Origin: Planctopirus limnophila DSM 3776
GTDB taxonomy: Bacteria > Planctomycetota > Planctomycetia > Planctomycetales > Planctomycetaceae
Assembly: GCF_000092105.1 (NCBI RefSeq)
Contig: NC_014148.1
Location: 3,990,001 to 4,022,000 of the forward strand
Length of the DNA: 32,000 bases
Direction: 5' to 3'
The notes beneath the pieces were generated by a model that was not told the origin of the DNA, did no database searches, and worked only from the letters and a program-made list of their open reading frames with translations. Shown here piece by piece: positions 1-21,046 of this stretch (its first letter is position 1; each line of letters starts with the position of its first letter). The position numbers and the translations under genes were made by a program.

Positions 1-3000
1 GACCAGGGCGTCGACGTCGGCTTCCGATTTGATTTCCCGGTTGTGCAACGAAAGATCGACCGGGACGATCATCGGCTTCGATCCTCCGCTGAGATACTCA
101 TCCAGCAGCCTGTTCGCCTGCTCCTCGGCGGCCTGCAGCCGGACGGTGAACGGATCCTTGAGATCCCGCAGCGCCGGGGCGATGGCCGCCGCGGTGGTGT
201 CGCTACATGAGTTGTTGATGGGCCGAAGGACGTTGTGTCCTTTCTCTGAGGGGAGCGTACTGTAGCCATCCCGCATCCGGATACGGGCCCGCGCCTGTTC
301 AGCCTGTTGCTCCTGCCATTCCAATAGACGAGTCCGTTCCTCGCGGTAGGCCTGACAGACCACATCGAGATCCGGTTGAATCGCCAGGGCATCCACCCAC
401 GGACGCGACGAAGCGAGTTGTTCGGCAATCCGCTCGGCGCATTCCTGGGCGGGGCCGGTCAGCGTACCGAGTTCGCGCAACTGGGCGGCCTGATTCGTGG
501 CGACGTTGTGGGCATCGCGAAGCAGGCGCAGCGAGTCTTCGGTCAGTTCGGCCCCAAAGCGTTTAAGCAGCTTGACACCGTCGACCAGATCGTCGAGATG
601 CTTCTTCACCCGCTTGAGGGTTTCCTTTGTGTTACGGATTTTGGAAAGGCACTGTTCCAGAGCAGAATTGAGTCGGGTGAGTTCCGTCGGGGTCTCCCGA
701 TTGCCGGGCACGCGGTCAAACCGCACCAGGACGTCGCGCAGATCGGACGCGAGCGGATGAAACTTCTTCTCCACGGCATCGGCGATCGCGTTGTCTTCAC
801 GATCGAGCGGCGTGCCGAGTTGCTCATCAAAGAACTTGCAGATCCGAGCCCGTGCCCGCACACCGATGTCGTCGTCTCCCACCGGGATGAACTGAGCCTT
901 GCGAAAGGCGGTAGGCTTCTCGAAGACGTCTCGCACGCCGGCATCGCGAACCGCGGTGATTTCGTTCCCTTCGCCATCTTCGATTTTAATTTTGCTGCCA
1001 CGCAGCAGCCCTATGACGCAGGCTTTAATGACTTCGGCCTGGTAGGCATAAGGCGGGCCAGCGAACTTCGAGAGGAGATGAGCACCGGTGGCACCGTCTT
1101 CGGATTCGATCAGTTCGCGAATGCGCGTGGGGATCAGGCCGCTGCAGGTGGGGACGTATTTGCCGGCATCGAGTTCCAGAATGCCGAGTTCATCCTTGAG
1201 AAACCGTGTCGACGGACCGCTGAGTTCCTGAATCAGCAACTGATCCAGTTCCGATGGCTGGAGGGTGATCGGATCAAATTCCTTGTACAGGATCGGCATG
1301 ACTCGTTCAGCGACCTTCAGCAGTGCGCCGGCAAACTTGCTGCCGAAGTCGTCCGGCTTGTAAGTCTTGCCCCGGAAGTAGATGGTACCGGCCAGCCAGG
1401 CGGACTCCACAATGTCCTGGATGTCCGATTCCAGCGTTTCGGATTTGACCTCTTCCTGCTGCAGGAGCAGTTTTCGCTGCTCACTGAGGGAATCGCGGCG
1501 GGGAGCATATCGCTTGGCCATTCCTCGGGCGCGGGCCAACGCACGCGCCCGATCGGTCAGGTCGTTAGTGTCGCCGCACACCCAGATCAGGCGGTCGTGA
1601 AGATTCACTTCGTTGCTGCGTTCAATCCAAACCGATTCTGATCGTTCATCGGGCTGGGCGAAACGGAAGTCGACACAGACGACGGCTTCGTCCTTGGCAC
1701 GCACCAGCTTGTCGTCATCCATGCCCTTGCCATCAGAGAAGAGAGCGGCCCAGGGAAATGGCCGTTTTTTGAAGGCGGGCTTTTCCGGTTTCTCCATCAC
1801 CATCTGCAAGGCATCGCGAATGATTTCACTGATGACTTCACGGGAAGCGCGAATCTCACGTTTCTCGCGTTCCCACTCCTCACCAGCCGTCGATTGGATG
1901 CGGTAGCCCAGCTTTTCGGAGAAGGCAAGAAGGTTATCACGACGGAGTTCTTCGAGCGCTTCTGTGACTTCGTTGACCTGATTGCCGCGATCCATGCGAT
2001 CGTACAGGCACTGGGCAACCAGCTTGGCGTCGGTCGGTCGGGTATCCTGAATCAGTTCGAGCAGAGCGACCGCCTTTGCAACGCGCTGCAGCATAGGAGC
2101 ACGGTTGGCGGTTTCGTTCAGGATGCGGGCCATGCTGGCCTGCGTATCGGAATCGAGCGCGGTTTTTTGAATCTCGTAAATCGTGTCGAGTGTGATCAGG
2201 TTGCCAACGGGCAGATCGGCCAGATTCTGGTCACGAAACAGCTCACCCAACAGCTGCAACAGACCACGGATTGCCTGATCGTCTCCCTGGGCGCGAGCCG
2301 ACCGGATGCGCATGGCACTGGTGATTTGCAGCAGCAAATCAATTTGGCCTGGGAGCAACGGGTAGACTTCAACGAACTCGTCAGCAGAGACGTCTTCACA
2401 GCCGAACGCAAAGAGCTTGAGATCCGGCCGATGTTTCTCGAATCGCTTGCGAAGGTCCTTCGCGCCCGCTTCGGTCTTCTGCAGCAACCGGCGATGGACG
2501 ACGTCCCGGATGTTCGTGGCGGCAAGATGGACGCGGAGCTGCTGTGGAAAACGATCCTTGGCCCAGACGAGGAAAGCGTCGCCCGCGTCCTCATCGATCT
2601 TTTGCTGACCCAACGCAAGCAGCCAGACTTTGCCCTTCAACTGGCTACCGAGCTCAGATGCAAATGCCCTCAACTTGTCGACCCGCTGCTCGTGAGACAG
2701 CACGTACTGCGAGACTTCGTCCACGACGATAAACAAAGTGCCGTCGGGTTTGCGAAGCCGCATCATGTCACTGATGGCACAGACTGCTTCGGTGGGGGAG
2801 TCGGTCACCGTCGTCCCGGCCCGACTGTCGATCCAGCTCATCGGATTGGTGTAGCGGTCTTTGTCGAAGTGATGCAGGATTTCGGAGAAGACTTCGTCGG
2901 CAAACGGCTGGTCCTTTTCCTGTTCCCAGGGGTGACCGATCTGGTCAGACACCTCCAGGAACCGCGTCCATTCGCCAGCCTTTTCCAAACGCAGTTCGAA

Positions 3001-3564
3001 GTTGGCCACCAACGGCAGATTCGCACAGTATCCGAGTCGCTTTTGTACCTGACGCACACAGGCCGTGTGAATGTGTTCGTTGTCCCTGGCAAATCCACCG
3101 ATATCGAACACCACGGCGAACGGTTCGGCGATCAGTTGCCGCAGCTTCTTCCAGGCGTCGCGAAACTCCTGTGCTCGATCAGACAGGTCACGCGCCAGTA
3201 GCGCTTCGGCCAGCGACTGGCCATTGGGCAGTTCAAGCCCATCCAGCGACAGCCCCAGCAGTTTGGCAAAACTGGATTTACCAGAGCCATAGAATCCGGA
3301 GATCCATGCTGCAGGCAGCGAGGGGCCGCCATTCTTTTCCATCTCGCGGGAAATGGCGTTCAGCAGCCTGACGTATTGCTCGTGAATTCCATCAGGCACT
3401 CGTTTGAAGTTGGGATGATCTTTGTTCCAACCACCAGTGATAATGTACTCCGAGACTTCGTCCTGAACCTTTCCAGGACTCTGCTCGTGAAAATACACCA
3501 CCGGAGGAATGTCGCGAGTGACATCCTGGCGAAACAAGTGTCTGATTAAAGCGGGACTGCTCAT
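1..3564 (-). CDS. brxC: BREX ATPase BrxC/PglY (P-loop); the 3' end runs off the window, 1188 codons visible
   Basis: Absent from the ORF track because no stop codon is reached. ATG at 3564 (+ strand 'cat' 3562-3564) opens a minus-strand frame phased on nt 1. I spot-checked nt 1-360 and 3230-3564 and found no stops. My translation: MSSPALIRHLFRQDVTRDIPPVVYFHEQSPGKVQDEVSEYIITGGW...AAWISGFYGSGKSSFAKLLGLSLDG. Walker A (GFYGSGKS) is at nt 3274-3297. It follows brxA and brxB in the canonical order. The + strand ORFs 376..1641 and 1894..3201 are its antisense shadows. Confidence 0.85.
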   Translation of the reverse strand, partial: MSSPALIRHLFRQDVTRDIPPVVYFHEQSPGKVQDEVSEYIITGGWNKDHPNFKRVPDGIHEQYVRLLNAISREMEKNGGPSLPAAWISGFYGSGKSSFAKLLGLSLDGLELPNGQSLAEALLARDLSDRAQEFRDAWKKLRQLIAEPFAVVFDIGGFARDNEHIHTACVRQVQKRLGYCANLPLVANFELRLEKAGEWTRFLEVSDQIGHPWEQEKDQPFADEVFSEILHHFDKDRYTNPMSWIDSRAGTTVTDSPTEAVCAISDMMRLRKPDGTLFIVVDEVSQYVLSHEQRVDKLRAFASELGSQLKGKVWLLALGQQKIDEDAGDAFLVWAKDRFPQQLRVHLAATNIRDVVHRRLLQKTEAGAKDLRKRFEKHRPDLKLFAFGCEDVSADEFVEVYPLLPGQIDLLLQITSAMRIRSARAQGDDQAIRGLLQLLGELFRDQNLADLPVGNLITLDTIYEIQKTALDSDTQASMARILNETANRAPMLQRVAKAVALLELIQDTRPTDAKLVAQCLYDRMDRGNQVNEVTEALEELRRDNLLAFSEKLGYRIQSTAGEEWEREKREIRASREVISEIIRDALQMVMEKPEKPAFKKRPFPWAALFSDGKGMDDDKLVRAKDEAVVCVDFRFAQPDERSESVWIERSNEVNLHDRLIWVCGDTNDLTDRARALARARGMAKRYAPRRDSLSEQRKLLLQQEEVKSETLESDIQDIVESAWLAGTIYFRGKTYKPDDFGSKFAGALLKVAERVMPILYKEFDPITLQPSELDQLLIQELSGPSTRFLKDELGILELDAGKYVPTCSGLIPTRIRELIESEDGATGAHLLSKFAGPPYAYQAEVIKACVIGLLRGSKIKIEDGEGNEITAVRDAGVRDVFEKPTAFRKAQFIPVGDDDIGVRARARICKFFDEQLGTPLDREDNAIADAVEKKFHPLASDLRDVLVRFDRVPGNRETPTELTRLNSALEQCLSKIRNTKETLKRVKKHLDDLVDGVKLLKRFGAELTEDSLRLLRDAHNVATNQAAQLRELGTLTGPAQECAERIAEQLASSRPWVDALAIQPDLDVVCQAYREERTRLLEWQEQQAEQARARIRMRDGYSTLPSEKGHNVLRPINNSCSDTTAAAIAPALRDLKDPFTVRLQAAEEQANRLLDEYLSGGSKPMIVPVDLSLHNREIKSEADVDALV

Positions 3565-3581: not shown

Positions 3582-4217
3582 TTAGTAAATCCGTGGTCTG
3601 TAGTCGCTGTCTGGGTCAACAACTCCCATGAAAGAGAGTCCTTTTTCTCCACGCCGTTCTCCGGGGTATAGCAAAACGACAGGGACGTTCCGTGTTCTGC
3701 CATCCAGATGGCGCAGTAGGGCTGATGATCGAAAGAACGGATACAGTGCGCCGGCCCGACCAACGATGGCGACCGTTCGATCAATGGTCTCTGCGTTCTG
3801 ATCGGCATAATCACAAATGATTCGACTGCAGTCGGCTGCGATGCCTTCCGGCCCCTCTATCAGCGGGGCAAGCCGTGTCTGAAGGTCCTGGATGCCACGC
3901 TCGATCGATTTTTGGGAAGTTCGTTTTTCGCGTTCGACTAACCGTTGAATGAAATCCTCACCCTGCGACCGAACGCGATCCAGGAGGAGCTTCTGCAGAT
4001 TGATCGTCAGCACCATCCAACCTTCGGATACGAGTTCGGTGTTGAGCCGGCGAACTTCACGCCGAAGACGGAATTCGTCTTTGGGATCGTATTGAACAAT
4101 CGCGAATCGATAGTTCCGCATCGTGCTGATGCGGGGGCCATCTTCCTGGATGAGGTCCGACCGCAGCGCATGAATCGCTTCCTGAAGCGGAGTTTGAGAG
4201 AAAAGATCGGCTGTCAT
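3582..4217 (-). CDS. brxB: BREX protein BrxB (DUF1788)
   Basis: 211-aa ORF. It carries RNYRFAIVQYDPKDEFRLRRE and a C-terminal VPVVLLYPGERRGEKGLSFMG...DYRPRIY, which fit my memory of the DUF1788 pattern. Its ATG overlaps the brxA stop (ATGA at 4214-4217). A 17-nt gap separates it from brxC. Confidence 0.85.
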   Translation of the reverse strand: MTADLFSQTPLQEAIHALRSDLIQEDGPRISTMRNYRFAIVQYDPKDEFRLRREVRRLNTELVSEGWMVLTINLQKLLLDRVRSQGEDFIQRLVEREKRTSQKSIERGIQDLQTRLAPLIEGPEGIAADCSRIICDYADQNAETIDRTVAIVGRAGALYPFFRSSALLRHLDGRTRNVPVVLLYPGERRGEKGLSFMGVVDPDSDYRPRIY

Positions 4218-4996
4218 GCTGTCTCCCGCAGTTGAGATTCCCCATGGAGGATCCTCGCCTCAGCCCACTCCGCGAGATCCTTGTATCGCCATGAGAACTC
4301 AAAGAGTTCTCCCTGTCTTCGGAGAGGGCAGTCGGGGAACGTTCTCGATCGTCGCTCAAGTTCCGGACCGGTCACGCCAACCGAAGCCAGATACGGGTTG
4401 TCAATCAGCGTGCCTTGAAACTGAATTTCACGCAGCAGATACAAAATGTAGCTTAGTGCTTCGTCGGTCACTCGCGGCGCCTGCCATTCACGTGGATCTC
4501 GGGTTCCCTTCAGGATGCCAGCTTCGCCTGCCGAAAAGAGCAGTTTTCTCGCAAACTGTATCCGTGTGGCGGTAGTCCAGCGCTGGGGAGCGGAATGATC
4601 GATCCAGCGAACAACAACATCTCTGGTCATTTCGGTTCGCCCGGCAGAATAGCGATCGACTAGGAAGCCGCCGGTGAATTCGCGGTAGAGCCGATCAGCC
4701 AACTGCAGGTGCCAATGACAGATCAAGCGGCGAGTGCTTGAGTCCATTGTCCCCCATCGATGCAGGATCGACATGGCAGGCGGGAACTGGTCAAATCGAT
4801 GTCGGAAATCATTGATAAGCCGAGTGACACGTGGCAAACTCCTCGCCCCAAACCAGTACTCTTTAAATGCGATTTGGGTGATAGTGTCATCGGCGGCTTC
4901 GGCAACACGATGCCAGTAAGCGCGACAATGCTCAACCTCAAGCGAGCACTTGAGGAGTCGCGTGTGAAATGCCGTGGTCTCCGAAGGCCGAGGCAT
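4214..4996 (-). CDS. brxA: BREX protein BrxA (DUF1819)
   Basis: The track ORF starts at TTG 4999. The next codon is ATG (4994-4996), which I prefer as the start. The N-terminus (TAFHTRLLKCSLEVEHCRAYW) resembles the DUF1819 'Y.a.l.kg.l..e' opening. The gene sits directly upstream of brxB. Confidence 0.75.
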   Translation of the reverse strand: MPRPSETTAFHTRLLKCSLEVEHCRAYWHRVAEAADDTITQIAFKEYWFGARSLPRVTRLINDFRHRFDQFPPAMSILHRWGTMDSSTRRLICHWHLQLADRLYREFTGGFLVDRYSAGRTEMTRDVVVRWIDHSAPQRWTTATRIQFARKLLFSAGEAGILKGTRDPREWQAPRVTDEALSYILYLLREIQFQGTLIDNPYLASVGVTGPELERRSRTFPDCPLRRQGELFEFSWRYKDLAEWAEARILHGESQLRETA

Positions 4997-5634
4997 CAAC
5001 TCGACCTCCGATAGTGTGGCAATGGATAGGAATCCGACAGCGGGTTGAATGCGGAAATCAAGTTGGAAACCGTCAGTTCAAGCGAATCCGGCTGTTTCCC
5101 TTTCAAACGGCGGCCCGCCGGAACATTCGTGAATTCAGCAGGATGGTGTCCTTCAAGCCACTCCACAAATTGCTCTGGATTCCAACTTTCGGAAACGATT
5201 TCCTTCAATCCAGGGAGAGCGATCGTCGGAGTGACCTGACGGCGTTTGAGGTCGGCAAGTCGATCATCGACACGCTCATCTACATCAAATCCCAAATAAA
5301 AAAGTGAGATAATTTCTTCGGCGTCGTGAGCGTGCCCACGCAGATCGGCGTCTCTCCTCCGTGCTGCTTCGCGCACACTTTGAAAGATGGCCCACTCCCA
5401 AGTATGTGGTAGCAAGCGACGAAAAAGATCTTCCCCACCAAACTCACTCTGGAGGTCAGTACGCCACCAGTCAAGCCGGGATTCTTCCCCGCCTTCTCCT
5501 GCCCAAGCGATGGCGAACTGGGCAGTGAGCAAATAGTCGAGAACGGACAACGGAATCTGTGTCCGAGCTGATGTGTCAATCGTGGCGGCTCCTTTGCCTG
5601 AGTCCTGTTCATAAACGGTTCGGAGATTTCTCAA
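4996..5634 (-). CDS. Uncharacterised protein coupled to brxA; candidate BrxE-like accessory gene (call based on position)
   Basis: 212-codon ORF. Its TGA stop (4996-4998) shares one nt with the brxA ATG. The only in-frame start at the 5' end is TTG (5634). I recognise no domain. A gene in this position is described for BREX type 6 (brxE). Confidence 0.45.
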   Translation of the reverse strand: MRNLRTVYEQDSGKGAATIDTSARTQIPLSVLDYLLTAQFAIAWAGEGGEESRLDWWRTDLQSEFGGEDLFRRLLPHTWEWAIFQSVREAARRRDADLRGHAHDAEEIISLFYLGFDVDERVDDRLADLKRRQVTPTIALPGLKEIVSESWNPEQFVEWLEGHHPAEFTNVPAGRRLKGKQPDSLELTVSNLISAFNPLSDSYPLPHYRRSS

Positions 5635-5732: not shown

Positions 5733-6341
5733 TCAAACAATGACGGGTTGTGGTTGCCAGGGTTTCCGGTCGCGGAGGATGGCATTGAGGGTGGTGATCA
5801 GCTTGTGCATGCAGGCCACCAGGGCCACTTTGAAGGCCTTCCCCGCGTTTCTTAATTTCTGGTAATAGCCGCGAATCACGGCGTTATGCCGGGTGGCGGC
5901 CAATGTGGCCATGTACAGAGCTGTGCGGACATTTTTTCGTCCGCCACGGATCATCCGCTGGCCACGACATTCACCACTGTCGCAGTTCATGGGAGCCACT
6001 TCCACAAGAGCTGCGATTTCTTCCCGCGAGCACTCGCCCAGTTCCGGTCAATCAAGCACCAGAACGCGGGCTGTCTGCGGGCCAATCCCGGGAACACTTT
6101 TGAGCAGCTCGACTTTTTCCTGTCAGGCAGGAGTCTGTCGAATCTGCGTGTCAATCTCATAATGGAGTTGCTGGAGACGGCTGCACCTGGTTGTTGAAAC
6201 CAAAGGTACTCTGTATGTCGACGAACTCCGCGATAAAGAGGGAGCCAAAATCGATTGCGGCAAAGCCCATTTCGAGGCGATCGCAGTGGAATCAAACCCG
6301 GCGAAGTTCATGCAGGCGAAGACAGTCGGTGATCTGTTCAA
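5733..6341 (-). pseudogene. IS110-family transposase relic (C-terminal Transposase_20/HhH part, N-terminal catalytic domain missing or degraded)
   Basis: My reading of a single minus-strand frame: ...RLQQLHYEIDTQIRQTPA*QEKVELLKSVPGIGPQTARVLVLD*PELGECSREEIAALVEVAPMNCDSGECRGQRMIRGGRKNVRTALYMATLAATRHNAVIRGYYQKLRNAGKAFKVALVACMHKLITTLNAILRDRKPW. There are two in-frame TGA stops (+ strand 'tca' at 6123-6125 and 6048-6050). They fall where W and L are expected. Confidence 0.8.
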
Positions 6342-6711
6342 TTGATTGTCCAGATGCCAGGCGAAGTCGTCAGTTGCTGTTGTTACGCTTGTTTCAGTGT
6401 TTCAGAAAGAGGTATGTACTGGCTCTTGGAGGCTCATCCATCAGACAGCGACTAACAATTCTATTTTCCTGATATAGTGTTTAATTATGTGTAACAACCG
6501 TAACAAGCATCTCCAAAGAAGTTCTAAGCAGTGCAATAGACAGCACTTACAGTGTTACCTGTGTTCTGCCCCACATTGGTAACTGATTGTCAACGGTTGC
6601 AACAAACGATCGTTAAAAACCAGATTTTGTGCTCGTATCCCTCGATTTGATGACCTGTCAGTGCTCAAGCTGTTCATCAGCTTCCGTAACCCTGTTCACA
6701 ACATTCGAGAT

Positions 6712-6755
6712 ACAGCCGTCGTTATCGAATGCAACAGCCGTCGTTATCGAATGCA
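6712..6755. repeat. Perfect 22-bp tandem duplication (acagccgtcgttatcgaatgca x2)
   Basis: Read directly: unit 1 is 6712-6733 and unit 2 is 6734-6755, identical at 22/22. The unit length is not a multiple of 3. Confidence 0.95.
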
Positions 6756-7104: not shown

Positions 7105-9282
7105 CTATTGGGAAGGTGTTTCAATCCACTGCTGCAAAGCCCCCCAGTTCTGTCCGGTTTCAATCACCACTTGAAGCGGAACGGGCATAGGATTTGAGAA
7201 TCCGGTCATGGCGGCTCTTATGCCGCGGGCGACCGCGTCCAATTGGTGCGTCAGACAGTCTACCAGCACGCCGTCGTGCATCGGCAGTAGGATGCGGGCA
7301 CCGGGAGGAAGCCTCTGATCCATCGCAATCAGCGCTTGCTTGAAGAGTTCAGCAGCGTGGGCCTGAATGAGGTTGTTCACTGCTTGGCGTTGGCGATTCA
7401 AGTCGTCCTGGCCTTCCGTGAGGTCTATGACTCGCCCCAACGGAGTCGTGACAAACCCGCTACTGAGAGCCTCCGCTGCCACGGATTGTCGCCAGGTCAT
7501 CAGCCGGGGGAACAGCCGCTGGATGGCTTCCGCGACAGAGGTCTTGCCGTCAGATGCTGTGCCATCATCAATGAAATCGTAGAGTGCTTGGATCGAGTCC
7601 CCTTTAATTATAGGCCGAGCGGAACTGACATCATGCTTCAAGTCATCGAATTGGCTGACAAGGAATGCATAGAGATCAAAATCAGGACTTCCAAAATCAG
7701 TGAGCAACTGCGAATCCTGGCTCAGCGCTGCTGCCACACGCCATTCGAACGCCCGGTAATCTGCGGAGATAAGAGTCCGGCCTTCGCCTACAACGACGGC
7801 TGGACGTAGACGTAGGGGAATCGACTGGCACGAATACTGTGAAGCCGTAATTCGACCTGTCCGGGATCTGTTTTGCGAAAGGCGCGTACGGAGGCGTCCT
7901 CCAGTCGGGGCGGCGCTAAGCCGCATTCTCTTCAGTTCAGGCAAATCATTGGTAGATGAAGGATTCCACCTTTCATCGAGCAGCAGTCCATGCTGCTCAA
8001 TCTTTCGAAGGATCGGGTTCATCGCTGCATCGAGTCGTGCGGACGCCGTAAGCTCTCGTCCCGTATGCTGGATGACCTGGAGGGGGTTCATGCCCGGGGG
8101 ACGCGAAATCGCACTGGCGATCGGAAGACGTGATACGTCCCTCGCGGGGGGGATGATGATCGTCCCAGCAGACTGTGAAAGAAGCCCGGCATCCGCTCTC
8201 GCCTGCCTCAAGGCGTGTTCAACTTCCTCAGGTCGGCATTCCCCGAAATCTTTACGGCCATCTGGTGGCAGGCAGCGCAAGACCCGTTTCGAAACTGCTC
8301 GTAAGCTGAGTTGTCTCTGCAATCGCCCAATCAATTCCATGGCGTCGGTTTCAGCATCTCTATCCAACGCCACCAGGACGGCGGACGCTTTTGAGGCCAG
8401 ATCCACCAGGAGGTCGAGCTGGGTCTGGCTGGCCGACTTTCCCAGAAGGGCAACTGCATTCCGACCAATCCGCCAGGCATCGGTCACACCCTCCACGACA
8501 ACGATCTCCGAGCGATCAGTAACTCCCGGCATGCCATACAAGTGTAACGACTTCCGGAATCCCGTCGCCGTGAGATACTTCGGCTGATCACTCTGCTCAA
8601 TTGCGCGCGCCTGCCACCCGACAAGATTTAAGGTTTCGATCTGGTAGAAGGGAATAATCAGCCGACGGACAATTCTGGGCTGTGAGGAATCGGACTCATC
8701 TACGTACCCCACATTCCAGTCGCGTGCGAGCTGTTCGGGGTCGAAGTTTCGTGAGGTAAGATAGTTTCGCGCATCATGATTCGAGGTCGAGTCAGTCAGA
8801 GACAGGAACTCGGGCGGCAGTACTATCGGTACCACTGCGTCGCCCGGGGTTAATACCGTCGTGGTGGGCAGCCAGAGATCCCCGGCGCAAGATCGTTGAG
8901 CCTCTCGCCAAACAGAACTGATTCTCAAATTGAATCGAGTTGCGAGTACTCCATTTGTATGGCAGCTTTCGTTAAAACAGTGCCAGCGGTGGGATCTCGA
9001 CTGGTCAGTCGGGTAGTAAGTCTCCGATACACGCATGCGACTTCTTTGGTCACGACAGAACGGGCAATTCAGCACGAATTCTTCGCCAAAGCCTGTGATA
9101 ACCTCACGCCCTTGCTGCGGATCGAAACGTACAGTTCTTCTCTGACCCGGATTCGCGATGCGCATGTGCGCAGTCTGCTCGGGATAAGCTATTTGAAGAG
9201 CCCGAGCGAGACCGACGTTGCGGGGTCTGATTGAAGATGGTGGAGGAGATGGTGGTGAGACAATCGAAAGCACTGAATGCAT
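7105..9282 (-). CDS. Fusion protein: DnaG-type primase (zinc finger, RNAP core, Toprim) joined to a minimal family-A DNA polymerase palm/fingers core
   Basis: 725 aa with an ATG start. Zinc finger: C73-x2-C76...H101-C102-x4-C107-H108. DnaG-like PKYLTATGFRKSLHLYG. Toprim: VVVEGVTDAW (E264) and LDRDAETD (D307, D309). PolA motifs run in Klenow order: RTGRITASQYSCQSIP, ISADYRAFEWR (motif A), RPIIKGDSIQALY (motif B), NLIQAHAAE, LPMHDG (motif C) and VPLQVVIETGQNWG (C-terminus). Confidence 0.8.
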   Translation of the reverse strand: MHSVLSIVSPPSPPPSSIRPRNVGLARALQIAYPEQTAHMRIANPGQRRTVRFDPQQGREVITGFGEEFVLNCPFCRDQRSRMRVSETYYPTDQSRSHRWHCFNESCHTNGVLATRFNLRISSVWREAQRSCAGDLWLPTTTVLTPGDAVVPIVLPPEFLSLTDSTSNHDARNYLTSRNFDPEQLARDWNVGYVDESDSSQPRIVRRLIIPFYQIETLNLVGWQARAIEQSDQPKYLTATGFRKSLHLYGMPGVTDRSEIVVVEGVTDAWRIGRNAVALLGKSASQTQLDLLVDLASKASAVLVALDRDAETDAMELIGRLQRQLSLRAVSKRVLRCLPPDGRKDFGECRPEEVEHALRQARADAGLLSQSAGTIIIPPARDVSRLPIASAISRPPGMNPLQVIQHTGRELTASARLDAAMNPILRKIEQHGLLLDERWNPSSTNDLPELKRMRLSAAPTGGRLRTRLSQNRSRTGRITASQYSCQSIPLRLRPAVVVGEGRTLISADYRAFEWRVAAALSQDSQLLTDFGSPDFDLYAFLVSQFDDLKHDVSSARPIIKGDSIQALYDFIDDGTASDGKTSVAEAIQRLFPRLMTWRQSVAAEALSSGFVTTPLGRVIDLTEGQDDLNRQRQAVNNLIQAHAAELFKQALIAMDQRLPPGARILLPMHDGVLVDCLTHQLDAVARGIRAAMTGFSNPMPVPLQVVIETGQNWGALQQWIETPSQ

Positions 9283-9376: not shown

Positions 9377-9404
9377 AGGGAGGAGGGCATAGTCCCTCCT
9401 CCCT
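9377..9404 (-). promoter_or_regulatory. GC-rich 11-bp perfect hairpin (AGGGAGGAGGG / CCCTCCTCCCT, 6-nt loop) in the gap between the helicase and primase-polymerase genes
   Basis: Read directly. On the minus strand the left arm resembles a Shine-Dalgarno sequence, and the loop ends in ATG (A at 9390). Confidence 0.6.
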
Positions 9405-9599: not shown

Positions 9600-11729
9600 T
9601 CACTCCGGTACTTCCTCCGTGCCTGCGGCTCGCTCTTCCAACAGAGGCGCCAGAATGCTGCCTTTCAGGCAGACCATTCGTACTGTAGGGCCATTTCTCG
9701 ACAATCGCACCATTTGAAGGTTCCCACGACCCCCGCTGACATGAAGCCAGCCAAGATTTCTCCATGCTGCGATTGTCTCCTGGAAATTGAAGCCTCTTAA
9801 CTGAAGAATTCTTTCCAGTTCGGTGAGAGTAAGGGCCAGAGATGGACGTCGATTAGCGTCGTCACGCGTTACGATCCAACGTCCAACAATGTCTCCCTGA
9901 CCTTCGGATGATCGGAACAGACCCTCCTGCAGTGAAGCCATATTGTTAACTGGAAAGAACCACCGTCGGCCAACCTCATCAAGGACGTGATGCAGTGCCT
10001 CAAGGGGGCGATCTGTTTCGATCAATTCACCAGCCAGCAGGGCCATAAGATCCCGGCCCGGATGCCGGAGTCTCTCTGGAAGATCGAAGAGTTCTCCTGC
10101 CAGCTCGGCGGCGAGTTCGACGACCGCGAGATGGCCCGCCATTCGTCCCGCAACCGGATTGTTCTGGACGGAATGTGCCAGCGTCTCGTGAATCTCACGA
10201 TAGCGTTCCCGCCACTGTTCCCAACTCGCTTGCTGCTGAAGAACCTGTCGCACAAACCGTGGTCCCAGATGGCCGAAATGGCGATTAGCCCGTGATCTAT
10301 AGCCATCGACCGTTTCTCGAGCATTGCTGATCAGATTGGCGAAGGGCGGACGGTTGAGTGGAACGACTCGTGCCCAGGTCCCCCCCTGCTCTTCAAAGCT
10401 GGTGAGCGCTTGCTCGCCCGTTGAAAGAGCAATCAGTCTCCATCTCGCTGTCTGCTGGACTCCGGCAACAGTTCCTCTTCCGCGAGCGATTCCATTCGCC
10501 AGGTCAAAAACGATTTGGCTGATCTGGTCATTTCTGGCCTGTCGGGTGTCATCCAGGAATAACGGCAAATGGTTATGGAAAGCGGCCCTGCGCTCTACGA
10601 AGACACGTGTCTGGTTCCAGGAATGGATCAGGGCTGCACCAGTCGCCTGGGCATCAGGCCGCCCCCAAACACTTGCCGAGACTTCAAGTGTCGTGGTTTT
10701 GCCTAGGCTCGTGGTTCCTGATAAATCGACCACAAATCCGGGGCGCTGGAGTATTGGGAGCAGGACGCTTGCCAGCGACGAGTAGAGCATGAAACGAGCG
10801 ATCGGAGACTCAGCTACCTCACGGAAAAGTGCGAGGCTCTCTTCAAAACTTCCTCCAGCCACAAAGGCATCGAGAGCGCTGTCGAAACCGTCATCGGGCA
10901 TGACGACGTCAATACCGTCTGGTTCCTCAGGTGTGGCCGCGATAAGAGTTCGTCCCCACGCAAACTGATTGAGATCTCTTTCCCACCCCAGCTGTCTCAG
11001 TACCTGACGATGAGGAAGGACCATGCTGTTGTCACCAAGGAAATCACCAAAGTACCCGACCCATCGACGAGCATTCAAAGAGTTCACGTTCATCCCGAAA
11101 CGGGAAAGTTCCAAGATTCCTCTCGAATCAGCCAGACTTCGACGAGAAATCTCACGTTGATCTAATCGACCGTCGTCTAACCACTGGACAACGACAGCCT
11201 GTTCTCTATTTATCGAATCGATGCGAATTTCGGACAGCCAAGCCAACTGTGGTAAGCTCTCAACTTCGGCGTTTCGTCTGGTCGCGGATCTCATTTCAAG
11301 AACGGGCATACTTGAATCAAAGTTGATTGACCAGTTTTGCGGAAGCTCCATATCTTCGGCAAGGGAGATGCGATTGTCGTGAATATCCAGCTGCCGCAAG
11401 ATTTCACGAATGCGTCTTGGGCCGCTTTGCTCAGGGTCAGACTCTGGGCGATTGAAACTCGAAGCGTGCTGATTGGCTTCGGAACTGGGTGGATTGGTAT
11501 CAGGCCCCGGATTCGACGGGCTCATTCCCGGCAAGAGAGTTCCCCATAATGAGGCTTCAGATTCCGGTGGAACTTGAGCAGAAAGACGGGAATCGTTGTT
11601 CGAATTTGATGCAATCATCATCGTCTTTTCTAGGCGCAATGACTTTGGAGTCGGAATAGCACCGTGGAAACATGGGAAAGTGTGGACAATCGGCGTGAGC
11701 ACACGCAGTACGAGTTGAAGAAATCTCAC
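9600..11729 (-). CDS. DUF927-type P-loop NTPase (helicase associated with phage/plasmid primases)
   Basis: VVDLSGTTSLGKTTTLEVSASVWGRPD (Walker A at nt 10695-10718) and HLPLFLDDTRQA (Walker B) match my memory of the DUF927 core. The track ORF starts at GTG 11729. ATG codons at 11621 and 11618 are alternative starts. The first ~100 aa are rich in P, S and N and of low complexity. Confidence 0.75.
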   Translation of the reverse strand: MRFLQLVLRVLTPIVHTFPCFHGAIPTPKSLRLEKTMMIASNSNNDSRLSAQVPPESEASLWGTLLPGMSPSNPGPDTNPPSSEANQHASSFNRPESDPEQSGPRRIREILRQLDIHDNRISLAEDMELPQNWSINFDSSMPVLEMRSATRRNAEVESLPQLAWLSEIRIDSINREQAVVVQWLDDGRLDQREISRRSLADSRGILELSRFGMNVNSLNARRWVGYFGDFLGDNSMVLPHRQVLRQLGWERDLNQFAWGRTLIAATPEEPDGIDVVMPDDGFDSALDAFVAGGSFEESLALFREVAESPIARFMLYSSLASVLLPILQRPGFVVDLSGTTSLGKTTTLEVSASVWGRPDAQATGAALIHSWNQTRVFVERRAAFHNHLPLFLDDTRQARNDQISQIVFDLANGIARGRGTVAGVQQTARWRLIALSTGEQALTSFEEQGGTWARVVPLNRPPFANLISNARETVDGYRSRANRHFGHLGPRFVRQVLQQQASWEQWRERYREIHETLAHSVQNNPVAGRMAGHLAVVELAAELAGELFDLPERLRHPGRDLMALLAGELIETDRPLEALHHVLDEVGRRWFFPVNNMASLQEGLFRSSEGQGDIVGRWIVTRDDANRRPSLALTLTELERILQLRGFNFQETIAAWRNLGWLHVSGGRGNLQMVRLSRNGPTVRMVCLKGSILAPLLEERAAGTEEVPE

Positions 11730-12375: not shown

Positions 12376-13383
12376 TTAACTGGCCTTTGTCAGGTGGAGA
12401 AATGGTGGCAGCTGGTTGATCAAGCCGTCGACATCAATGCGGGGAATACGGAGTATCGACAGTTTCTCTGAGAGAGGGTCGATAGCCGCTGTGTCCTCCA
12501 GAACCTGGCCATTGTCAACAGCCTGCGGAACTACCGACTCCTCGACGTTAACCTCTGTGGGAGATGACGTTGGGGACGATACTAAGGCAGTTTCTGACAG
12601 TCGACGTGCATGTTCATGTTGATACAGAGGCCAGTACAGATTCTCTGTCTCGATCTCTTTTTCGGGAAAATTGAGTTTGATCTGGATTTTCAGATCGAGC
12701 GAATATGTTTCTGGCGGAGACACATGACTCACGGGAAATTTTCGGACAGCCATCGCGACACGGTCGATGGCTGCCCGCGCCTTATAGGATCGAGAATAGA
12801 GTCCCGGATATTCATAGTGATAGCGAGCCGTCTGACGTGCCCGGTGCCCTGATTTTTTCAGCGTCCTGGAGGCATCTTTGAGATTCATCAATACCAGCTG
12901 CTCGTAATACAACTCCAGGATGGGATGAGCATGCATCCCCTCGGGAAGCGCGACTTTGCTTTCCACCAGTTGCTTCATTTGATCCAGTTGCGTTGAAGAA
13001 TGCCCGGACATCGTGACGAGCTGCAGATACAAGGCGGTTTTGCCCCACTGTTTCAGCTCCCGTGCCTTCGCCTTTCCTATCAGTCGCTTCTGGCGATCCG
13101 TGAGTTCTGGCAGCTTATAGTCTGTTGGTGCTAACAACCCGGCCAGCACAGGGAGTGGAAACTCCAGCAGCTGCTGAAGCTTTCTGGCGCTGATTTTGGC
13201 CTGATTCCGCACCTGATTTTCAAAACACGTCAGCTTCCGCCGAGCCTGGTTGATGGCTGCGAACATCTGCGCTGCTGCGATCCCATCATAACCACTGCCG
13301 TAATACTCTTTCTCAATACGTCCGTAGCGACGAACTGAGCGGTAATAGTAACTGTTTCCGTTTCGACGCCTTTCCCATGCCAT
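12376..13383 (-). CDS. Hypothetical protein (335 aa)
   Basis: ATG start at 13383. The composition looks protein-like. The N-terminus (MAWERRRNGNSYYYRSVRRYGRIEKEYYGSG) resembles openings I associate with hypothetical proteins of mobile elements. No domain recognised. Confidence 0.6.
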   Translation of the reverse strand: MAWERRRNGNSYYYRSVRRYGRIEKEYYGSGYDGIAAAQMFAAINQARRKLTCFENQVRNQAKISARKLQQLLEFPLPVLAGLLAPTDYKLPELTDRQKRLIGKAKARELKQWGKTALYLQLVTMSGHSSTQLDQMKQLVESKVALPEGMHAHPILELYYEQLVLMNLKDASRTLKKSGHRARQTARYHYEYPGLYSRSYKARAAIDRVAMAVRKFPVSHVSPPETYSLDLKIQIKLNFPEKEIETENLYWPLYQHEHARRLSETALVSSPTSSPTEVNVEESVVPQAVDNGQVLEDTAAIDPLSEKLSILRIPRIDVDGLINQLPPFLHLTKAS

Positions 13384-13499: not shown

Positions 13500-14249
13500 T
13501 TAGGGCTGGGAATTACAGACGGTTTGAAGCCACTGACACTGAGCTCTCAATTCCCGCAGTTTTTCAGCGGCATAAACCAGTTTGCATGTTTGTGGCCGGG
13601 GATGCCGGGGCGTATCGCGGGGAGACAGGATCCGTAGAACTCTCAGCTTCTCTTCCCGTGTCAGCTGGCTCTCTTCTCGCAGATATCCCAACAGCCCATA
13701 CCTTCGCACCAGTGTGCGCAACTCAGGAGTCAGATATCGCTCCAGTTCTGTGAGACCCGATTGATAGGCCACAAGCTTCCAGAAATAGCTGTATTCATGG
13801 CTTTTTGTGATTTCCACAGGCCGAAATTTGACAGCGTTATGCTGAATCCAGGAGATCGATGTCTTCAAAAGAGGCAACACCTCAAAGAACAGGGCTTCAT
13901 AAGCCACAATGGCATTTTCTGGCCATTGCACCACAGAAGCCACCTCACTCACTGTCTGATGAGCCAGCAGACGCGCCTCGATTTCAGCCGATACGAACGG
14001 ATCCGTTTCTCGTAAGGAAACGGCCATCAGCACGGCTTCATCGATGTGATCGTTCACTGTTGGCGCGCGCTCCCGCACCTCCCAGCACTTCAGGAGACTG
14101 AGACACCAGGGGTCTTTAAGGCGTTTCTCAGGGTGCTTCCTGGCCAGAAGGCACCACAATTCCCGCCAATTTGGCTCCCGAATTGGGGAAGTGGGACCCG
14201 GAATCTGTTTTTCGAAGAAGAAATAGTCGCCAAATGGAGAGCGCGGCAT
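13500..14249 (-). CDS. Hypothetical protein (249 aa from the ATG)
   Basis: The track ORF starts at GTG 14306. The first ATG is at 14249 (MPRSPFGDYFFFEK...). No domain recognised. Same orientation as the replication genes. Confidence 0.55.
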   Translation of the reverse strand: MPRSPFGDYFFFEKQIPGPTSPIREPNWRELWCLLARKHPEKRLKDPWCLSLLKCWEVRERAPTVNDHIDEAVLMAVSLRETDPFVSAEIEARLLAHQTVSEVASVVQWPENAIVAYEALFFEVLPLLKTSISWIQHNAVKFRPVEITKSHEYSYFWKLVAYQSGLTELERYLTPELRTLVRRYGLLGYLREESQLTREEKLRVLRILSPRDTPRHPRPQTCKLVYAAEKLRELRAQCQWLQTVCNSQP

Positions 14250-14688
14250 CACTTTTTCGCTCAAAAATGAGGGTCTGGAACAGCGCGATGTACTACATCT
14301 GCACACAGCGAGCTTTCGCTATTCCCGCATATCTCGGGCGTGAGCGCAAGAGGAAAAGATTCCGCCCGGGCGAAGAGCTGTCGCGTCCCGTTCGAGAAAT
14401 GAATGGCCGGATTGCCTTCCACAGCCGCCGTGAAAGTCATGCCGGGAATTCTCACGACACATCAAAAACCTCACTAGCGCGGATCAACCTTCTGCGCTAC
14501 GATGAGTCTTGAAGCTTTGTGCCATATCACGCCATGCCGAGAGGAGGTTCGATTGAGACAGCCATTCCCGACTTCTGTGCTCGTTCCCTGATGAACAGCC
14601 AGGAATGTCCCTTCTAAACAGGGAGTGAATGCCAGCTTGTGCAGCAGCATTCTCGGAATGGATTCAGCCCATATGGAGAAATATCACC

Positions 14689-14901
14689 ATGTATGACATT
14701 TTTCATGAACACAAGCCAGGCTTTGAATCTGTCGCTGTGGATCGCCAGACCGCAGCAAAAATCCTGGGAATTTCACTCGCCACACTCGACCGCCATGTAC
14801 GGTCTGGAAAAATTCCCTCCTGGAAGCTGGGGCGACGTGTCATATTCGATCAGGCAACACTCCTTGAATTGTTGCGTTCCGCGGGTCAGTCCACGAGGTG
14901 A
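14689..14901 (+). CDS. Helix-turn-helix DNA-binding protein, excisionase/AlpA/MerR-like
   Basis: DRQTAAKILGISLATLDRHVRSGKIPSWKLGRRVIFDQATLLELL is a typical Xis-type HTH. ATG 14689 is preceded by GGAGAA 8 nt upstream. The track start at ATG 14629 would add 20 aa. Confidence 0.65.
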   Translation: MYDIFHEHKPGFESVAVDRQTAAKILGISLATLDRHVRSGKIPSWKLGRRVIFDQATLLELLRSAGQSTR

Positions 14902-15376
14902 TTGAAGTTGTCCGGATCTCCCACAGAAGACAGCTGATCTGTTTTGAGTCTTACAGAGAGGTTCGAGTCGACCTCGCAGGATACTCAACAGCTCAGCTGT
15001 ATTCTGGTGGGGAGCCAGAATACGTCTTGAAGGGTTTATCGAGCCGAGAAGTCCCGGCATCCACGTTCTAAACACGGCCCTGTCGATCAGGAACTGATGG
15101 TTGGCAGTGGGAAGAAGTGAATTTGCCAGCTCACAAAACAAGCAGGGCCATCTTCCTGGAAGATGTCTTTCGCTATGAGATTCCAGACTTCTCGACAGGG
15201 GCGTATGGCGTCGAACCGTTTACGTGATGGAGGAATCGCTGAGAATTCAGGAACGTAAACTGGCCGCCGCGGCTGACTCGTAAAGCATTCAATCGACTGA
15301 CGAACTTTTCTCACTGTCTGTGATTCGTAATGTCGTTTGATTCATCAAGCTCACTCGAAGTTTAGGGGTTCATTCA

Positions 15377-16696
15377 ATGGCATCTCTCGAAACGGATAAG
15401 TCTGGCAATAAAACAATTCGGGTTCTCTGTGCCGATGGCAAGCGAAGACGGATCCCGCTTGGCAGGGTTGCACTCAAGTTTGCTCGAACCATCCGAACTC
15501 ATATCAACGAACTTGAAAGCCATCGGGCGGGGGCTGTGGCTTTACCGGTTGAATTGGCTCGATGGACGGCTGAAATCAGCGACGATCTCCACGCTCAGAT
15601 CGTGGAAACAGGATTACTCCAGCCACGGGCGAAAACGGCCACGGTCCATCTGGGGGCGGCCTGCGATGCCTTCCTGGCCAAGCGAGGAGACATCAAGGGC
15701 GGGTCGCGGCAGCAGATCGAATACGCGCTGAAGGACCTACGGACGTACTTCGGCGATGACCGGAGTTTCGATTCGATTACCCCTGGCTGTGCGGATGATT
15801 TCGCTCGCTACTTGAAGTCCAAAGAGCAACTCGCCACGGCCACAATTTCCCGGCGGCTGGTGACGTGCCGGAGTCTTTTTGCCGATGCGGTCAAGCGGAA
15901 GTGCATCTCAGAGAATCCGTTCGCGGACATCAAGGGTGGTTCACAAGCCAATTCATCCCGCCAGCGGTTCATCGACCGACAGACAATCGGACGGATCATG
16001 GAAGCCTGCCCGGATGCCGAATGGCGACTGCTGGTCGCACTGGCGCGATTCGGTGGTGTTCGTGTCCCGTCTGAAGCCGTCGACATGCGATGGAGCGATA
16101 TCGACTGGGCTAGAAACCGGGTCCGAATCGCTTCGCCGAAAACAGAACACCATGTCGGCCACGAGTCCCGAGAGATTCCTTTGTTCCCTGAATTGCTGAC
16201 GCCCTTGATGGAGCGGCAGGAACTGGCGGAAGATGGGAGTGAATTCATATTCGACCGGTTGCGGCGAGATGCGGCCAAATCAGACACTGGCTGGAAGGCG
16301 GTGAACCTGCGGACGCAATTCACTCGCATCATCAAACGGGCTGGGTTGACACCGTGGCCACGGCTCTGGGTGAATCTTCGATCATCGTGTTCGACAGAAC
16401 TTGCCGAACGATTCCCCGGCCATGTGGTCTCCCGATGGTTAGGGCATTCAAACGAAGTTGCGGTGGAACATTATCGGCAGGTGACGGAGGAGCATTTTCG
16501 CTTGGCGGCGGAGACGACCTCAAAAGCGATGGAAAACATCCGGGCACAATCCGGGCAATCACTGGCCATCATAGGCAATCTGGGGTCCTCGACAGCTTGG
16601 ACCAGAAACGAAGAAACCCCTGAAAAACAGGGGTTTTGCGGACTAGTGACAGTTGGTGAAGAGTCAAATGATTACCCCGCCAGGATTCGAACCTGA
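15377..16696 (+). CDS. int: Tyrosine recombinase / phage-type integrase
   Basis: 439 aa. Catalytic signature: FGGVRVPSE (Arg I), VNLRSSCSTEL (the HxxR box, with N in place of the first H) and WLGHSNEVAVEHY (His and the Tyr nucleophile). AGGGG lies 8 nt upstream of the ATG. The last 25 nt overlap the tRNA-Gln 3' half. Confidence 0.9.
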   Translation: MASLETDKSGNKTIRVLCADGKRRRIPLGRVALKFARTIRTHINELESHRAGAVALPVELARWTAEISDDLHAQIVETGLLQPRAKTATVHLGAACDAFLAKRGDIKGGSRQQIEYALKDLRTYFGDDRSFDSITPGCADDFARYLKSKEQLATATISRRLVTCRSLFADAVKRKCISENPFADIKGGSQANSSRQRFIDRQTIGRIMEACPDAEWRLLVALARFGGVRVPSEAVDMRWSDIDWARNRVRIASPKTEHHVGHESREIPLFPELLTPLMERQELAEDGSEFIFDRLRRDAAKSDTGWKAVNLRTQFTRIIKRAGLTPWPRLWVNLRSSCSTELAERFPGHVVSRWLGHSNEVAVEHYRQVTEEHFRLAAETTSKAMENIRAQSGQSLAIIGNLGSSTAWTRNEETPEKQGFCGLVTVGEESNDYPARIRT

Positions 16697-16742
16697 ACGT
16701 GCAGGACCAAAACCTGCTGTGCTACCGTTACACTACGGGGTA
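16672..16742 (-). tRNA. tRNA-Gln (anticodon UUG), 71 nt, CCA not encoded
   Basis: Hand-folded from the reverse complement: TACCCCG TA GTGT AACGGTA GCAC A GCAGG TTTTGGT CCTGC ACGT TCAGG TTCGAAT CCTGG CGGGGTA A. It has the U1:A72 pair known from E. coli tRNA-Gln. Confidence 0.9.
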
Positions 16743-17634: not shown

Positions 17635-18268
17635 GACATCGATCCTTTGAGAACAAAACGGGCAAAAAGAGCGATCTCAGAGAAATTTCAGAGTCGAAAC
17701 TTCAGCACCACGGAATGGACAGACCACCCTGAACGGGTAGCTTTCGCAGGCCAGAATCCTTGGTTTGAAATCGCCAGGGGGGGTAACAAAATGTGAGATC
17801 AGGGACATCGCAGCGTTCATACCGAATGAGTCAGACTCACTCAGAAGCACACGGATTCACAGTGAAACAGGGAGAACTATTGGAAGGGTATTGAATCGAG
17901 GTATCTTGGGAATCTTGCCGTGCACTCTGGGACAAATCGCTTGGGGCAGAACTATCGAGTAGTGACTCTCACAGAATGCCCTTGGAGCAGACTGTGCCGA
18001 AACAACACGGACAGAATTCACTCAAGAGCACGGAATCTGCTGCAAGATGGTTTTTTCGTCAACCACAATTTCCTGAAAAATTCGAACCCGCGCGGTTTCT
18101 CTCAAGTCTTTCTCACTCGGCTGAGTGAATCGCTGAAATCCGATCTCGACAGAACTGGGCTCGATTCGGTACACCACGCGATGACCGCCTGCAATTCCCG
18201 CCTCCTGGCAATCGCCTGCTCCTCTCTATTTCCAACGTGCCCTTCCTTCCTACAGCACGATTTTTCCT

Positions 18269-19918: not shown

Positions 19919-19977
19919 CTATTTCGTGTTTCTGTTCGATTCAGCTCTCGTCATCCAGTTCACAAGGTCACCACATA

Positions 19978-20970: not shown

Positions 20971-20978
20971 TGACGTTT

Positions 20979-21034
20979 GGTATTGGGTGTTTGGTATTTG
21001 AATGTCTAACACCCAACACCAAACACCGAATACC
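20979..21034 (+). promoter_or_regulatory. Intercistronic stem-loop between fliG and fliH
   Basis: Left arm GGTATTGGGTGTTTGGT (20979-20995) pairs with ACCAAACACCGAATACC (21018-21034) at 16 of 17 positions, with a 22-nt loop. An inner alternative pairing is TTGGGTG/CACCCAA. Confidence 0.6.
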
Positions 21035-21046
21035 TAAGGCCCTTAC

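Follow-up and report, generated by a model that had tools for sequence, protein, structure and literature searches.

Which process would call for a DnaG-type primase and a DNA polymerase of family A (PolA) joined in one polypeptide, the latter deprived of both its exonuclease domains and its thumb? This question is raised by a gene on the chromosome of Planctopirus limnophila DSM 3776, located within the 32,000-nucleotide stretch analysed here and called the window (NC_014148.1, positions 3,990,001 to 4,022,000); all coordinates refer to the window, and those of the main features are collected in Table 1. The initial annotation, made from the sequence alone, had recognized both halves of the protein and left three options for it: priming and extension on its own, a gap-filling or protein-assisted replicase for an element, or a degenerate polymerase with a new role. 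The first two fit the neighbouring helicase gene and the island, with integrase and tRNA, to which both genes belong; the last is disfavoured, because D508, D670, R556, K560 and R477 of the polymerase half are invariant in the family. The architecture itself, a zinc-ribbon primase followed by an exonuclease-less and thumb-less PolA core in a single chain, proved to be a conserved natural design, and the gene product likely serves an integrative mobile element of Planctomycetota as the primase-polymerase of its replication module.

Translation reproduces the 725-codon open reading frame (ORF) and all the motif residue numbers initially assigned. The ORF begins with ATG; the NCBI product, named 'DNA-directed DNA polymerase', is 100% identical, starts at M40 and is 686 aa long. 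The true start is probably M1, giving 725 aa, and not the annotated M40, since the N-terminal region is conserved in the family and confidently folded. Indeed, residues 1-65 form a family-conserved helical/beta region where L25 and L29 are at least 90% conserved, and in the stretch 9166-9282 residues 21-40 are conserved across the family, with a predicted local distance difference test score (pLDDT) above 90 in the AlphaFold2 (AF2) model. Here and below, unless otherwise stated, conservation refers to 26 family representatives (25-37% identity).

The N-terminal half is a primase of the zinc-ribbon DnaG/Toprim type and is predicted to synthesize primers. The translation contains the DnaG core motif PKYLTATGFRKSLHLYG at residues 234-250 and the Toprim acidic residues E264 (in EGVTD) and D307-R-D309. 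The Pfam DNAG_N model is matched with 29.0 bits (cut-off 26, E = 1.3e-6) and the PHROG DNA primase family phrog_47 covers residues 66-368 (E = 5.5e-44), thus recovering the primase/Toprim domain initially placed at about residues 70-320; further matches are the TIGR01391 dnaG domain (E = 2.4e-11) and, weakly, Aquifex DnaG in a search of PDB sequences (E = 9e-5). The Pfam Toprim models each stay below cut-off (15.9 bits vs 22.1); a Toprim fold is nevertheless present, as judged from motif conservation, the PHROG match and the fold. E264, D307 and D345 are invariant, D309 nearly so, and D268 and Y236 are at least 90% conserved, while K235, R243 and K244 are invariant in a 5-sequence alignment only and not in the 26-sequence set. 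The zinc finger had been described with histidine ligands. Each of its four cysteines (C73, C76, C102 and C107) reaches a conservation of at least 90%, whereas H101 and H108 vary in the family, and the site is therefore regarded as Cys4. By Foldseek this half matches the phage 'zinc-binding domain of primase-helicase' and phage zinc-binding primases.

The C-terminal half matches Pfam DNA_pol_A over residues 457-714 (E = 5e-35, 121.5 bits vs a cut-off of 34.3) and the PHROG DNA polymerase family phrog_17 over residues 460-716 (E = 1e-31). KlenTaq, Klenow and Bst Pol I are found among PDB sequences with E values from 1e-23 to 1e-16, and a Foldseek comparison of the predicted structure, a check proposed in the initial annotation, returned Klenow, KlenTaq, Bst, Pol nu and Pol theta, with E of about 1e-20; sequence and fold searches thus agree on a PolA domain in the expected region, residues ~400-725. 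As read from the translation, motif A is D508YRAFE513, the O-helix carries R556, K560, I564 and Y568, the last being present as in Klenow, and motif C is H669-D670-G671. T475, R477 (the Arg of the TGR hairpin that contacts the template), D508, R556, K560, H669 and D670 are invariant. The steric-gate residue E513 is kept in 23 of the 26 representatives, which favours the use of dNTPs. Motif C thus reads HDG and not HDE, and the position of Klenow F762 is taken by the non-aromatic I564.

Profile searches found neither a 5'-3' nor a 3'-5' exonuclease domain in the fusion protein, in agreement with the initial reading, and the DNA_pol_A match takes in profile positions 100-380 of 381 only. Helix 413-431 and strand 433-435 constitute the canonical start of the Pol domain ('IE..G.x.D'); from this strand (G432) to the TGR hairpin (T475) there are 44 residues, against about 120 in thumb-bearing relatives. 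Residues 436-466 alone occupy the site of a thumb of ~110-120 residues, and the AF2 model shows there a single 17-residue helix (H444-460). A HMMER match running back to Taq 499, by which thumb helix I would be retained and the N-terminus of the Pol domain lost, turned out to be spurious on segment-wise scoring. In the short-form family the segment preceding the TGR hairpin scores 40-88 against the Pol-domain start and 17-30 against the thumb tip and helix I of thumb-bearing PolAs, and the more diverged query agrees on the Pol-start placement in 9 of 10 comparisons; therefore, the retained piece is the Pol start and the thumb is truly gone. Family alignment, AF2 model and segment scoring hence bear out the first estimate of about 35 residues in place of about 120.

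The AF2 model, computed from the 26-sequence family alignment, has a mean pLDDT of 83.5 and a predicted template modelling score (pTM) of 0.50, with a disordered linker at residues 368-410; as modelled, primase and polymerase would be two independently folded halves. To judge from the family alignment, the C-terminal part of linker 366-410 probably holds the last remnant of a lost exonuclease-fold domain.

Word-indexed homologue searches gave only about 5 relatives, and the family became visible when 1.84 billion cluster representatives were searched exhaustively with a profile. This search retrieved ~30-35 proteins of 650-980 aa spanning both halves, besides many stand-alone primases of ~360 aa and stand-alone PolAs of ~545 aa. 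In GTDB genomes the full fusions are found in Planctomycetaceae, Pirellulaceae, Gemmataceae and unclassified Planctomycetota, and genome-borne fusions are almost all from this phylum. Among the best 80 loci of IMG/VR there are relatives of the primase half only, and in annotated phage records no fusion was found that matches 80% or more of the query.

Two lengths are bimodal in the family: the distance from the Pol-start strand to the TGR hairpin, which is either about 45-51 or about 120 residues with a few intermediates, and the Toprim-to-Pol spacer, of about 45-110 or about 200-220 residues. All four combinations of thumb and spacer length are seen. The long form P0011 (950 aa; pLDDT 89.8, pTM 0.78) superposes on the whole large fragment of Bst, Klenow and KlenTaq, with a template modelling (TM) score of 0.86 relative to the target over about 590 columns and 29% identity; thus, the long spacer is a 3'-5' exonuclease-fold domain. 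In this spacer the Exo I D-x-E is not conserved and Pfam detects no exonuclease, and the exonuclease fold of the long forms is vestigial. By sequence the long forms are the nearest to canonical Pol I (Klenow, E = 4e-76). A neighbour-joining tree (no branch support) suggests at least 3 independent thumb reductions, recent ones being P0013 beside the thumb-bearing P0011 and P0008 beside P0005. The family forms a reduction series in which thumb and exonuclease fold each appear to have been lost several times.

The survey also changes the view of the two substitutions which had been listed as peculiar to this protein. Both are present, and neither is its own: motif C is HD-[S/A/G] in 21 of 22 fusions and in 25 of 27 short stand-alone PolAs, whereas the 11 canonical Pol I matches all have HDE, so that HD-[S/A/G] is a signature of the whole primase-linked clade, conserved in the family together with the fusion. 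The position of Klenow F762 is aromatic in thumb-bearing and recently reduced members and M, I, L, S, N or Q in the old thumb-less lineages.

The two halves do occur as separate genes. In two metagenome-assembled genomes (MAGs) of Planctomycetota (L012, 9781-12317; L014, 9989-12975) a 343-aa primase and a PolA of about 470 aa, with an exonuclease-fold remnant, are adjacent ORFs preceded by a D5_N/DUF5906 helicase. The L012 PolA matches DNA_pol_A from profile position 92 (Pfam), the thumb being missing there too. These pairs represent either naturally divided forms of the fusion or the outcome of recent fissions or frameshifts, and they provide Rosetta-stone support for a joint function of the halves. 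They could also be taken as a hint that an assembly or frameshift artefact has joined two genes in P. limnophila, an eventuality that the initial annotation had named as fatal to its proposal and whose probability is negligible: the genome is finished, the NCBI protein is identical, the linker is continuous and in frame, and the same architecture recurs in an intact, indel-free ORF of a 92%-identical copy from an independent sample (L004) and in dozens of diverged metagenomic and MAG sequences, forming ~30-35 fusion clusters. Finally, in two phage contigs (L039, 8290-14605; L045, 8215-14662) a DnaB-like helicase gene is followed by that of a 360-aa primase belonging to the family of the window protein's N-terminal half and, 4-7 nt downstream, by a gene for a polymerase of ~1200 aa of N4-like type, with uracil-DNA glycosylase, exonuclease and PolA domains. 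Thus, helicase, primase and polymerase make up one functional unit, and its parts are fused, separated or exchanged in different ways.

The L004 copy comprises helicase, fusion and downstream spacer. The two 2178-nt ORFs (window 7105-9282, L004 1590-3767) differ at 233 nt, with no stop or indel; under random substitution 7.9 stops would arise on average, and the ORF stayed open in 0.06% of simulations. The ratio of non-synonymous to synonymous substitution rates (dN/dS) is 0.69 for the fusion overall, about 0.67 in its Pol half and 0.41 in the helicase. Divergence between the copies is a mosaic, since codons 541-660 (fingers) have a synonymous rate (dS) of 0.32 and the last 65 codons (palm C-terminus) are identical, which suggests recombination between element variants. 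These data bear on the idea that the primase alone is functional and that the thumb-less PolA half is a decaying or a structural/regulatory appendage, for instance a DNA- or helicase-binding module. The loss of thumb, exonuclease domain and E883-equivalent points that way, as does the dN/dS of the Pol half, and in thumb-less lineages the F762 and Y766 positions drift, with the Y568-equivalent turned into N, H, G or F in several representatives. Conversely, the seven invariant Pol residues listed above are kept in 26/26 representatives, every thumb-less one included, the two copies do not differ in the last 65 codons, the ORF was kept open against the expected stops, and HD-[S/A/G] is already found in thumb-bearing, otherwise canonical long forms. 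An inert polymerase half appears therefore improbable.

The gene directly upstream would supply the activity that the protein lacks. The layout had been described as devoid of a helicase; this is true within the polypeptide, where Pfam and PHROG profiles reveal neither a superfamily 4 (SF4) helicase nor an exonuclease domain, but not of the system, since the helicase is the adjacent gene. Its product matches DUF927 (Pfam, E = 6e-33) and phrog_8841 'primase/helicase' (E = 2e-86) and, weakly, the NCBIfam SCCmec Cch1 model (53.5 bits vs a cut-off of 700); the homologues in L003 and L004 have a C-terminal DNA-binding domain, HTH_56 'Cch HTH'. A superfamily 3 (SF3)-type helicase is directly upstream in 10/10 loci with enough sequence, of DUF927 type in the window, L001, L003, L004, L005, L021 and L026, and of D5_N/DUF5906 type in L002, L012 and L014. 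It is the sole obligatory neighbour; integrases recur (L002, too, has one, with HTH_17) and nothing else does. The helicase and the fusion gene are separated by 317 nt without any ORF, a length identical in L004. In this gap a perfect 10-bp G+C hairpin is located at 9378-9403, GGGAGGAGGG-N6-CCCTCCTCCC, which may be an attenuator or a processing signal.

Upstream of the helicase there are three ORFs (12376-13383, 13500-14306 and 14773-15141), to which no Pfam, PHROG or PADLOC family could be assigned, followed by a tyrosine integrase gene. This enters the 3' end of the tRNA-Gln gene, on the opposite strand, by 25 nt (16672-16696). An overlap between integrase gene and tRNA 3' end is typical of tRNA-targeting islands. 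Directly to the right of the tRNA a flagellar cluster (FliF, FliG, FliI-type ATPase and FliK; 17920-26977) belongs to the core chromosome and marks the right boundary of the island.

Table 1. Location of the fusion gene, of its domains and motifs, and of associated genes in the window.
Feature	Position	Strand	Remarks
Whole primase-PolA fusion gene	7105..9282	minus	725 codons + stop
N-terminal conserved helical/beta region, residues 1-65	9088..9282	minus	conservation and fold
Cys4 zinc ribbon, residues 66-125	8908..9087	minus	C73-x2-C76 ... C102-x4-C107; conservation, Foldseek
DnaG-type RNA-polymerase core, residues 166-365	8188..8787	minus	PKYL...FRKS...LYG motif 234-250; E264/D268, D307-x-D309, D345
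Flexible linker, residues 366-410	8053..8187	minus	pLDDT <50
Family-A polymerase core, residues 411-725 + stop	7105..8052	minus	Pol-start helix/strand 413-435, palm, fingers
Thumb stub, residues 436-466	7885..7977	minus	single short helix; ~110-120 thumb residues expected
Motif A DYRAFE	7744..7761	minus	catalytic D508, steric-gate E513
O-helix	7579..7617	minus	R556-x3-K560-x3-I564-x3-Y568
Motif C H669-D670-G671	7270..7278	minus	without second carboxylate
Upstream partner, DUF927/Cch-like SF3-type helicase	9600..11729	minus	709 aa
Tyrosine integrase	15377..16696	plus	3' end overlapping tRNA
tRNA-Gln(ttg)	16672..16742	minus	integration target and right boundary of island

On the other side of the fusion gene, the spacer contains a perfect 22-nt tandem duplication, ACAGCCGTCGTTATCGAATGCA x2, at 6712-6755, ~350 nt downstream of the gene. 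It was considered as a set of origin iterons and discarded, since it is single-copy in L004 and represents a recent duplication rather than a conserved iteron array. An inverted repeat, TTGTTACG.TTGTT at 6380-6396 and AACAA.CGTAACAA at 6490-6506, encloses an AT-rich stretch; it is conserved in L004 (4343-4356 / 4457-4470) and could be an origin or insertion sequence (IS)-end feature. A scan for promoters and terminators was uninformative, the counts being below shuffled expectation. Further on, at 5733-6300 (minus), what remains of an IS110-family transposase is its C-terminal part (Transposase_20, E = 1e-8), the upstream part being out of frame; this remnant sits between BREX genes and the fusion gene and is at least partly common to L004. 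The BREX genes, also on the minus strand, are brxE (4996-5634), brxA (4214-4999) and brxB (3582-4217), identified by PADLOC with E from 1e-109 to 1e-150. On this strand no brxC-sized ORF follows brxB, in place of which two unassigned plus-strand ORFs are found (376-1641 and 1894-3201), and the cluster looks truncated or interrupted.

The vicinity of brxE, brxA and brxB, 1.5-3.5 kb away, raises the possibility that the gene is an anti-phage defence component in a defence island, a PolA/DnaG pair similar to those of the UG/DRT reverse-transcriptase systems, in which UG9 enzymes work with PolA and UG6/24/29 with DnaG-type primases (PMC9226505). PADLOC indeed reports RTasPolA (E = 6e-29), RT_UG29 (6e-15) and RTasDnaG-like (6e-13). 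These matches, however, are no stronger than those of the generic Pfam PolA and DnaG models and concern the generic cores only; moreover, no reverse transcriptase is present among the window ORFs or among 77 neighbour ORFs of homologues, BREX genes were not found beside the homologues, and what is conserved there is a replicative-type helicase, with integrases recurring. A role in defence is thus very improbable.

Replication proteins provide closer comparisons. In T7 gp4 and P4 alpha a primase is fused to a helicase. They share with the window a phage-type zinc-ribbon and Toprim primase (phrog_47) associated with a replicative helicase; here, instead, the fusion partner of the primase is the polymerase, and a separate gene encodes the helicase. 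The best functional parallel would be, by analogy, the CCPol-MP-Cch2 module of SCCmec, a mobile-element module with a truncated PolA, a Cch-type helicase and biochemical support, for which a hand-off to the host polymerase is presumed (PMC7581432, Bebel 2020). Like the window, this system and CcPol-SSB of Bacillota combine a truncated Pol I-derived PolA with a helicase, close to a site-specific recombinase; the helicase is of Cch/DUF927 or D5/COG3378 type there, while that of the window matches DUF927 well and SCCmec Cch1 only weakly. Both polymerases lack proofreading, and the thumb, shortened in CCPol (PMC10061031, Bison & Rice 2023), is essentially absent in the window protein. CCPol, presumed to make primers or short DNA for the host polymerase, primes by PolA itself, assisted by the small protein MP with an oligonucleotide/oligosaccharide-binding (OB) fold; in the window a zinc-ribbon DnaG/Toprim primase is fused and there is no MP or SSB gene. 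The gene order also differs, helicase then polymerase versus pol-MP-helicase, as do the recombinase, a tyrosine integrase versus a serine recombinase, and the host phylum, Planctomycetota versus Bacillota.

Other partial precedents are known. Pas55 of Actinoplanes phage phiAsp2, noted as a fusion of SF3 helicase, DnaG and PolA (Kazlauskas 2016, PMC4889955), also joins a Toprim-type primase-like domain and PolA in one polypeptide; however, it is 1415 aa long, contains an internal helicase region, has an N-terminal DUF3854 rather than a zinc-ribbon DnaG, and in its PolA HDE and a larger part of the thumb are retained (Pfam profile positions 55-380). Considered as a homologue it was rejected, since it has 22% identity over the Pol core and no similarity in the primase, and it represents an independent fusion, likewise uncharacterized. 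According to a reclassification of PolA (Czernecki 2023, PMC10201439), Toprim fusions are listed only for apicoplast PREX, fusions of PolA with archaeo-eukaryotic primases (AEP) for some Planctomycetota, and CCPols are described as truncated outliers. PREX shares with the window protein the Toprim primase and PolA in one translation product; it has in addition an SF4 helicase, an active 3'-5' exonuclease, a full thumb and a PolA of an Aquificae-like cluster, none of which is found here. TV-Pols are minimal PolA-like cores of mobile elements linked to D5-like helicases, with planctomycetes among their hosts; they are missed by standard PolA profiles, keep a coiled-coil thumb and are predicted to be self-priming (Iyer, Abhiman & Aravind 2008, PMC2579912). 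Compared with them by description, the window protein clearly belongs to Pfam DNA_pol_A, comes nearest to canonical Pol I, has no thumb and carries a bona fide DnaG primase. The same paper remarks in one line that in a Gemmata obscuriglobus polymerase the thumb is 'displaced' by a Cys-rich domain found stand-alone in viruses (PMC2579912); this protein may be an early sighting of the present family with its primase not recognized. The initial statement that no characterized enzyme has this layout agrees with the open-access literature searched, in which no paper describing or characterizing this fusion was found; PREX-type proteins, on the other hand, are not the only partial precedent, in view of Pas55, CCPol-MP-Cch2, the AEP-PolA fusions and the Gemmata remark.

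The domain identities, the catalytic residues, the loss of thumb and exonuclease, the helicase linkage and the island context are all supported by the data above; the activities of the enzymes, the hand-off and the sharing of work with host polymerases we infer as follows. After excision of the element, the DUF927/Cch-like hexameric helicase would open and unwind its origin; on the exposed single strand the Cys4 zinc ribbon and the DnaG/Toprim core would make a short primer, and the PolA core, held on the flexible linker of ~45 residues, would take it intramolecularly and extend it with dNTPs. The polymerase alone is probably distributive and error-prone, since it is without proofreading domain and thumb. 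Most likely, a short DNA stretch would be made before the host replicase takes over, following the logic of Pol alpha-primase and as presumed for CCPol-MP; alternatively, the primase/zinc domain and the helicase may hold the DNA for the polymerase.

The same two genes could form a self-sufficient minimal replicase, priming and copying the whole element (>11 kb) without host polymerases, with the primase/zinc domain or the helicase acting as a clamp in place of the thumb. Two genes indeed provide the complete set of helicase, primase and polymerase, the catalytic residues of the polymerase are all conserved, and long-form relatives combine a full thumb with a rigid inter-domain arrangement (pTM 0.78). 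The window protein, however, has neither thumb nor proofreading, and no gene for a clamp or processivity partner is nearby; the thumb was lost repeatedly in the family, which suggests that processive synthesis over long stretches can be dispensed with, and CCPol-MP, the closest studied analogue, is not processive (PMC7581432). Full self-sufficiency is hence unlikely. A more specific proposal can be put forward tentatively, namely that primase and PolA core act as one machine, in which the primase/zinc module grips the primer-template in place of the thumb and the active site of the polymerase receives directly primers of 2-5 nt with a 5'-triphosphate and makes from them short RNA-DNA hybrid primers for the host replicase, as a bacterial single-chain functional analogue of the eukaryotic Pol alpha-primase. 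On this reading, the repeated thumb loss would be adaptive and not decay, removing a helix that sterically blocks the nascent 5'-triphosphate, an idea raised for CcPols (PMC10061031).

Several observations weigh against a working primase-polymerase of an integrative element. The missing second carboxylate of motif C and the non-aromatic F762-equivalent could lower catalytic efficiency, and the fairly high dN/dS may indicate that this element is under relaxed constraint. No convincing replication origin was found, and a second copy of the tRNA-Gln 3' end, as left attachment (att) site, was sought in the window and none was found; the island either extends past window position 1 or its far end has decayed. 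Together with the IS110 remnant downstream, the lack of a second att suggests that the element, in this copy, may have lost its mobility. To our knowledge, activity has never been demonstrated for a PolA without a thumb. As far as the account in PMC10061031 goes, only a deletion of the Klenow thumb tip has been tested (Minnick 1996, cited therein).

Mobile-element modules of primase, polymerase and helicase are a kind already known, and what distinguishes this one is the direct DnaG-PolA fusion and the natural Pol I core without thumb and exonuclease, which is conserved and has evolved recurrently. If active, it would represent the smallest family-A polymerase core in nature known to function without a thumb and the first characterized direct DnaG-PolA primase-polymerase, and would reveal how large a part of the Pol I fold can be spared if the DNA is held by a fused partner. 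From a practical point of view, a single-chain 'prime-and-extend' enzyme of 725 aa might serve in primer-free isothermal amplification. The family would also offer a natural reduction series, with exonuclease fold and thumb, thumb only, exonuclease fold only or neither, in which processivity, fidelity and primer hand-off could be dissected. Integrative elements with their own polymerase include Staphylococcus aureus pathogenicity islands (SaPIs), staphylococcal cassette chromosome (SCC) elements, pipolins and casposons; with an active fusion protein, Planctomycetota would join these few cases, and even if the protein were inactive or merely distributive, it would still illustrate neatly how a mobile-element replication module loses domains.

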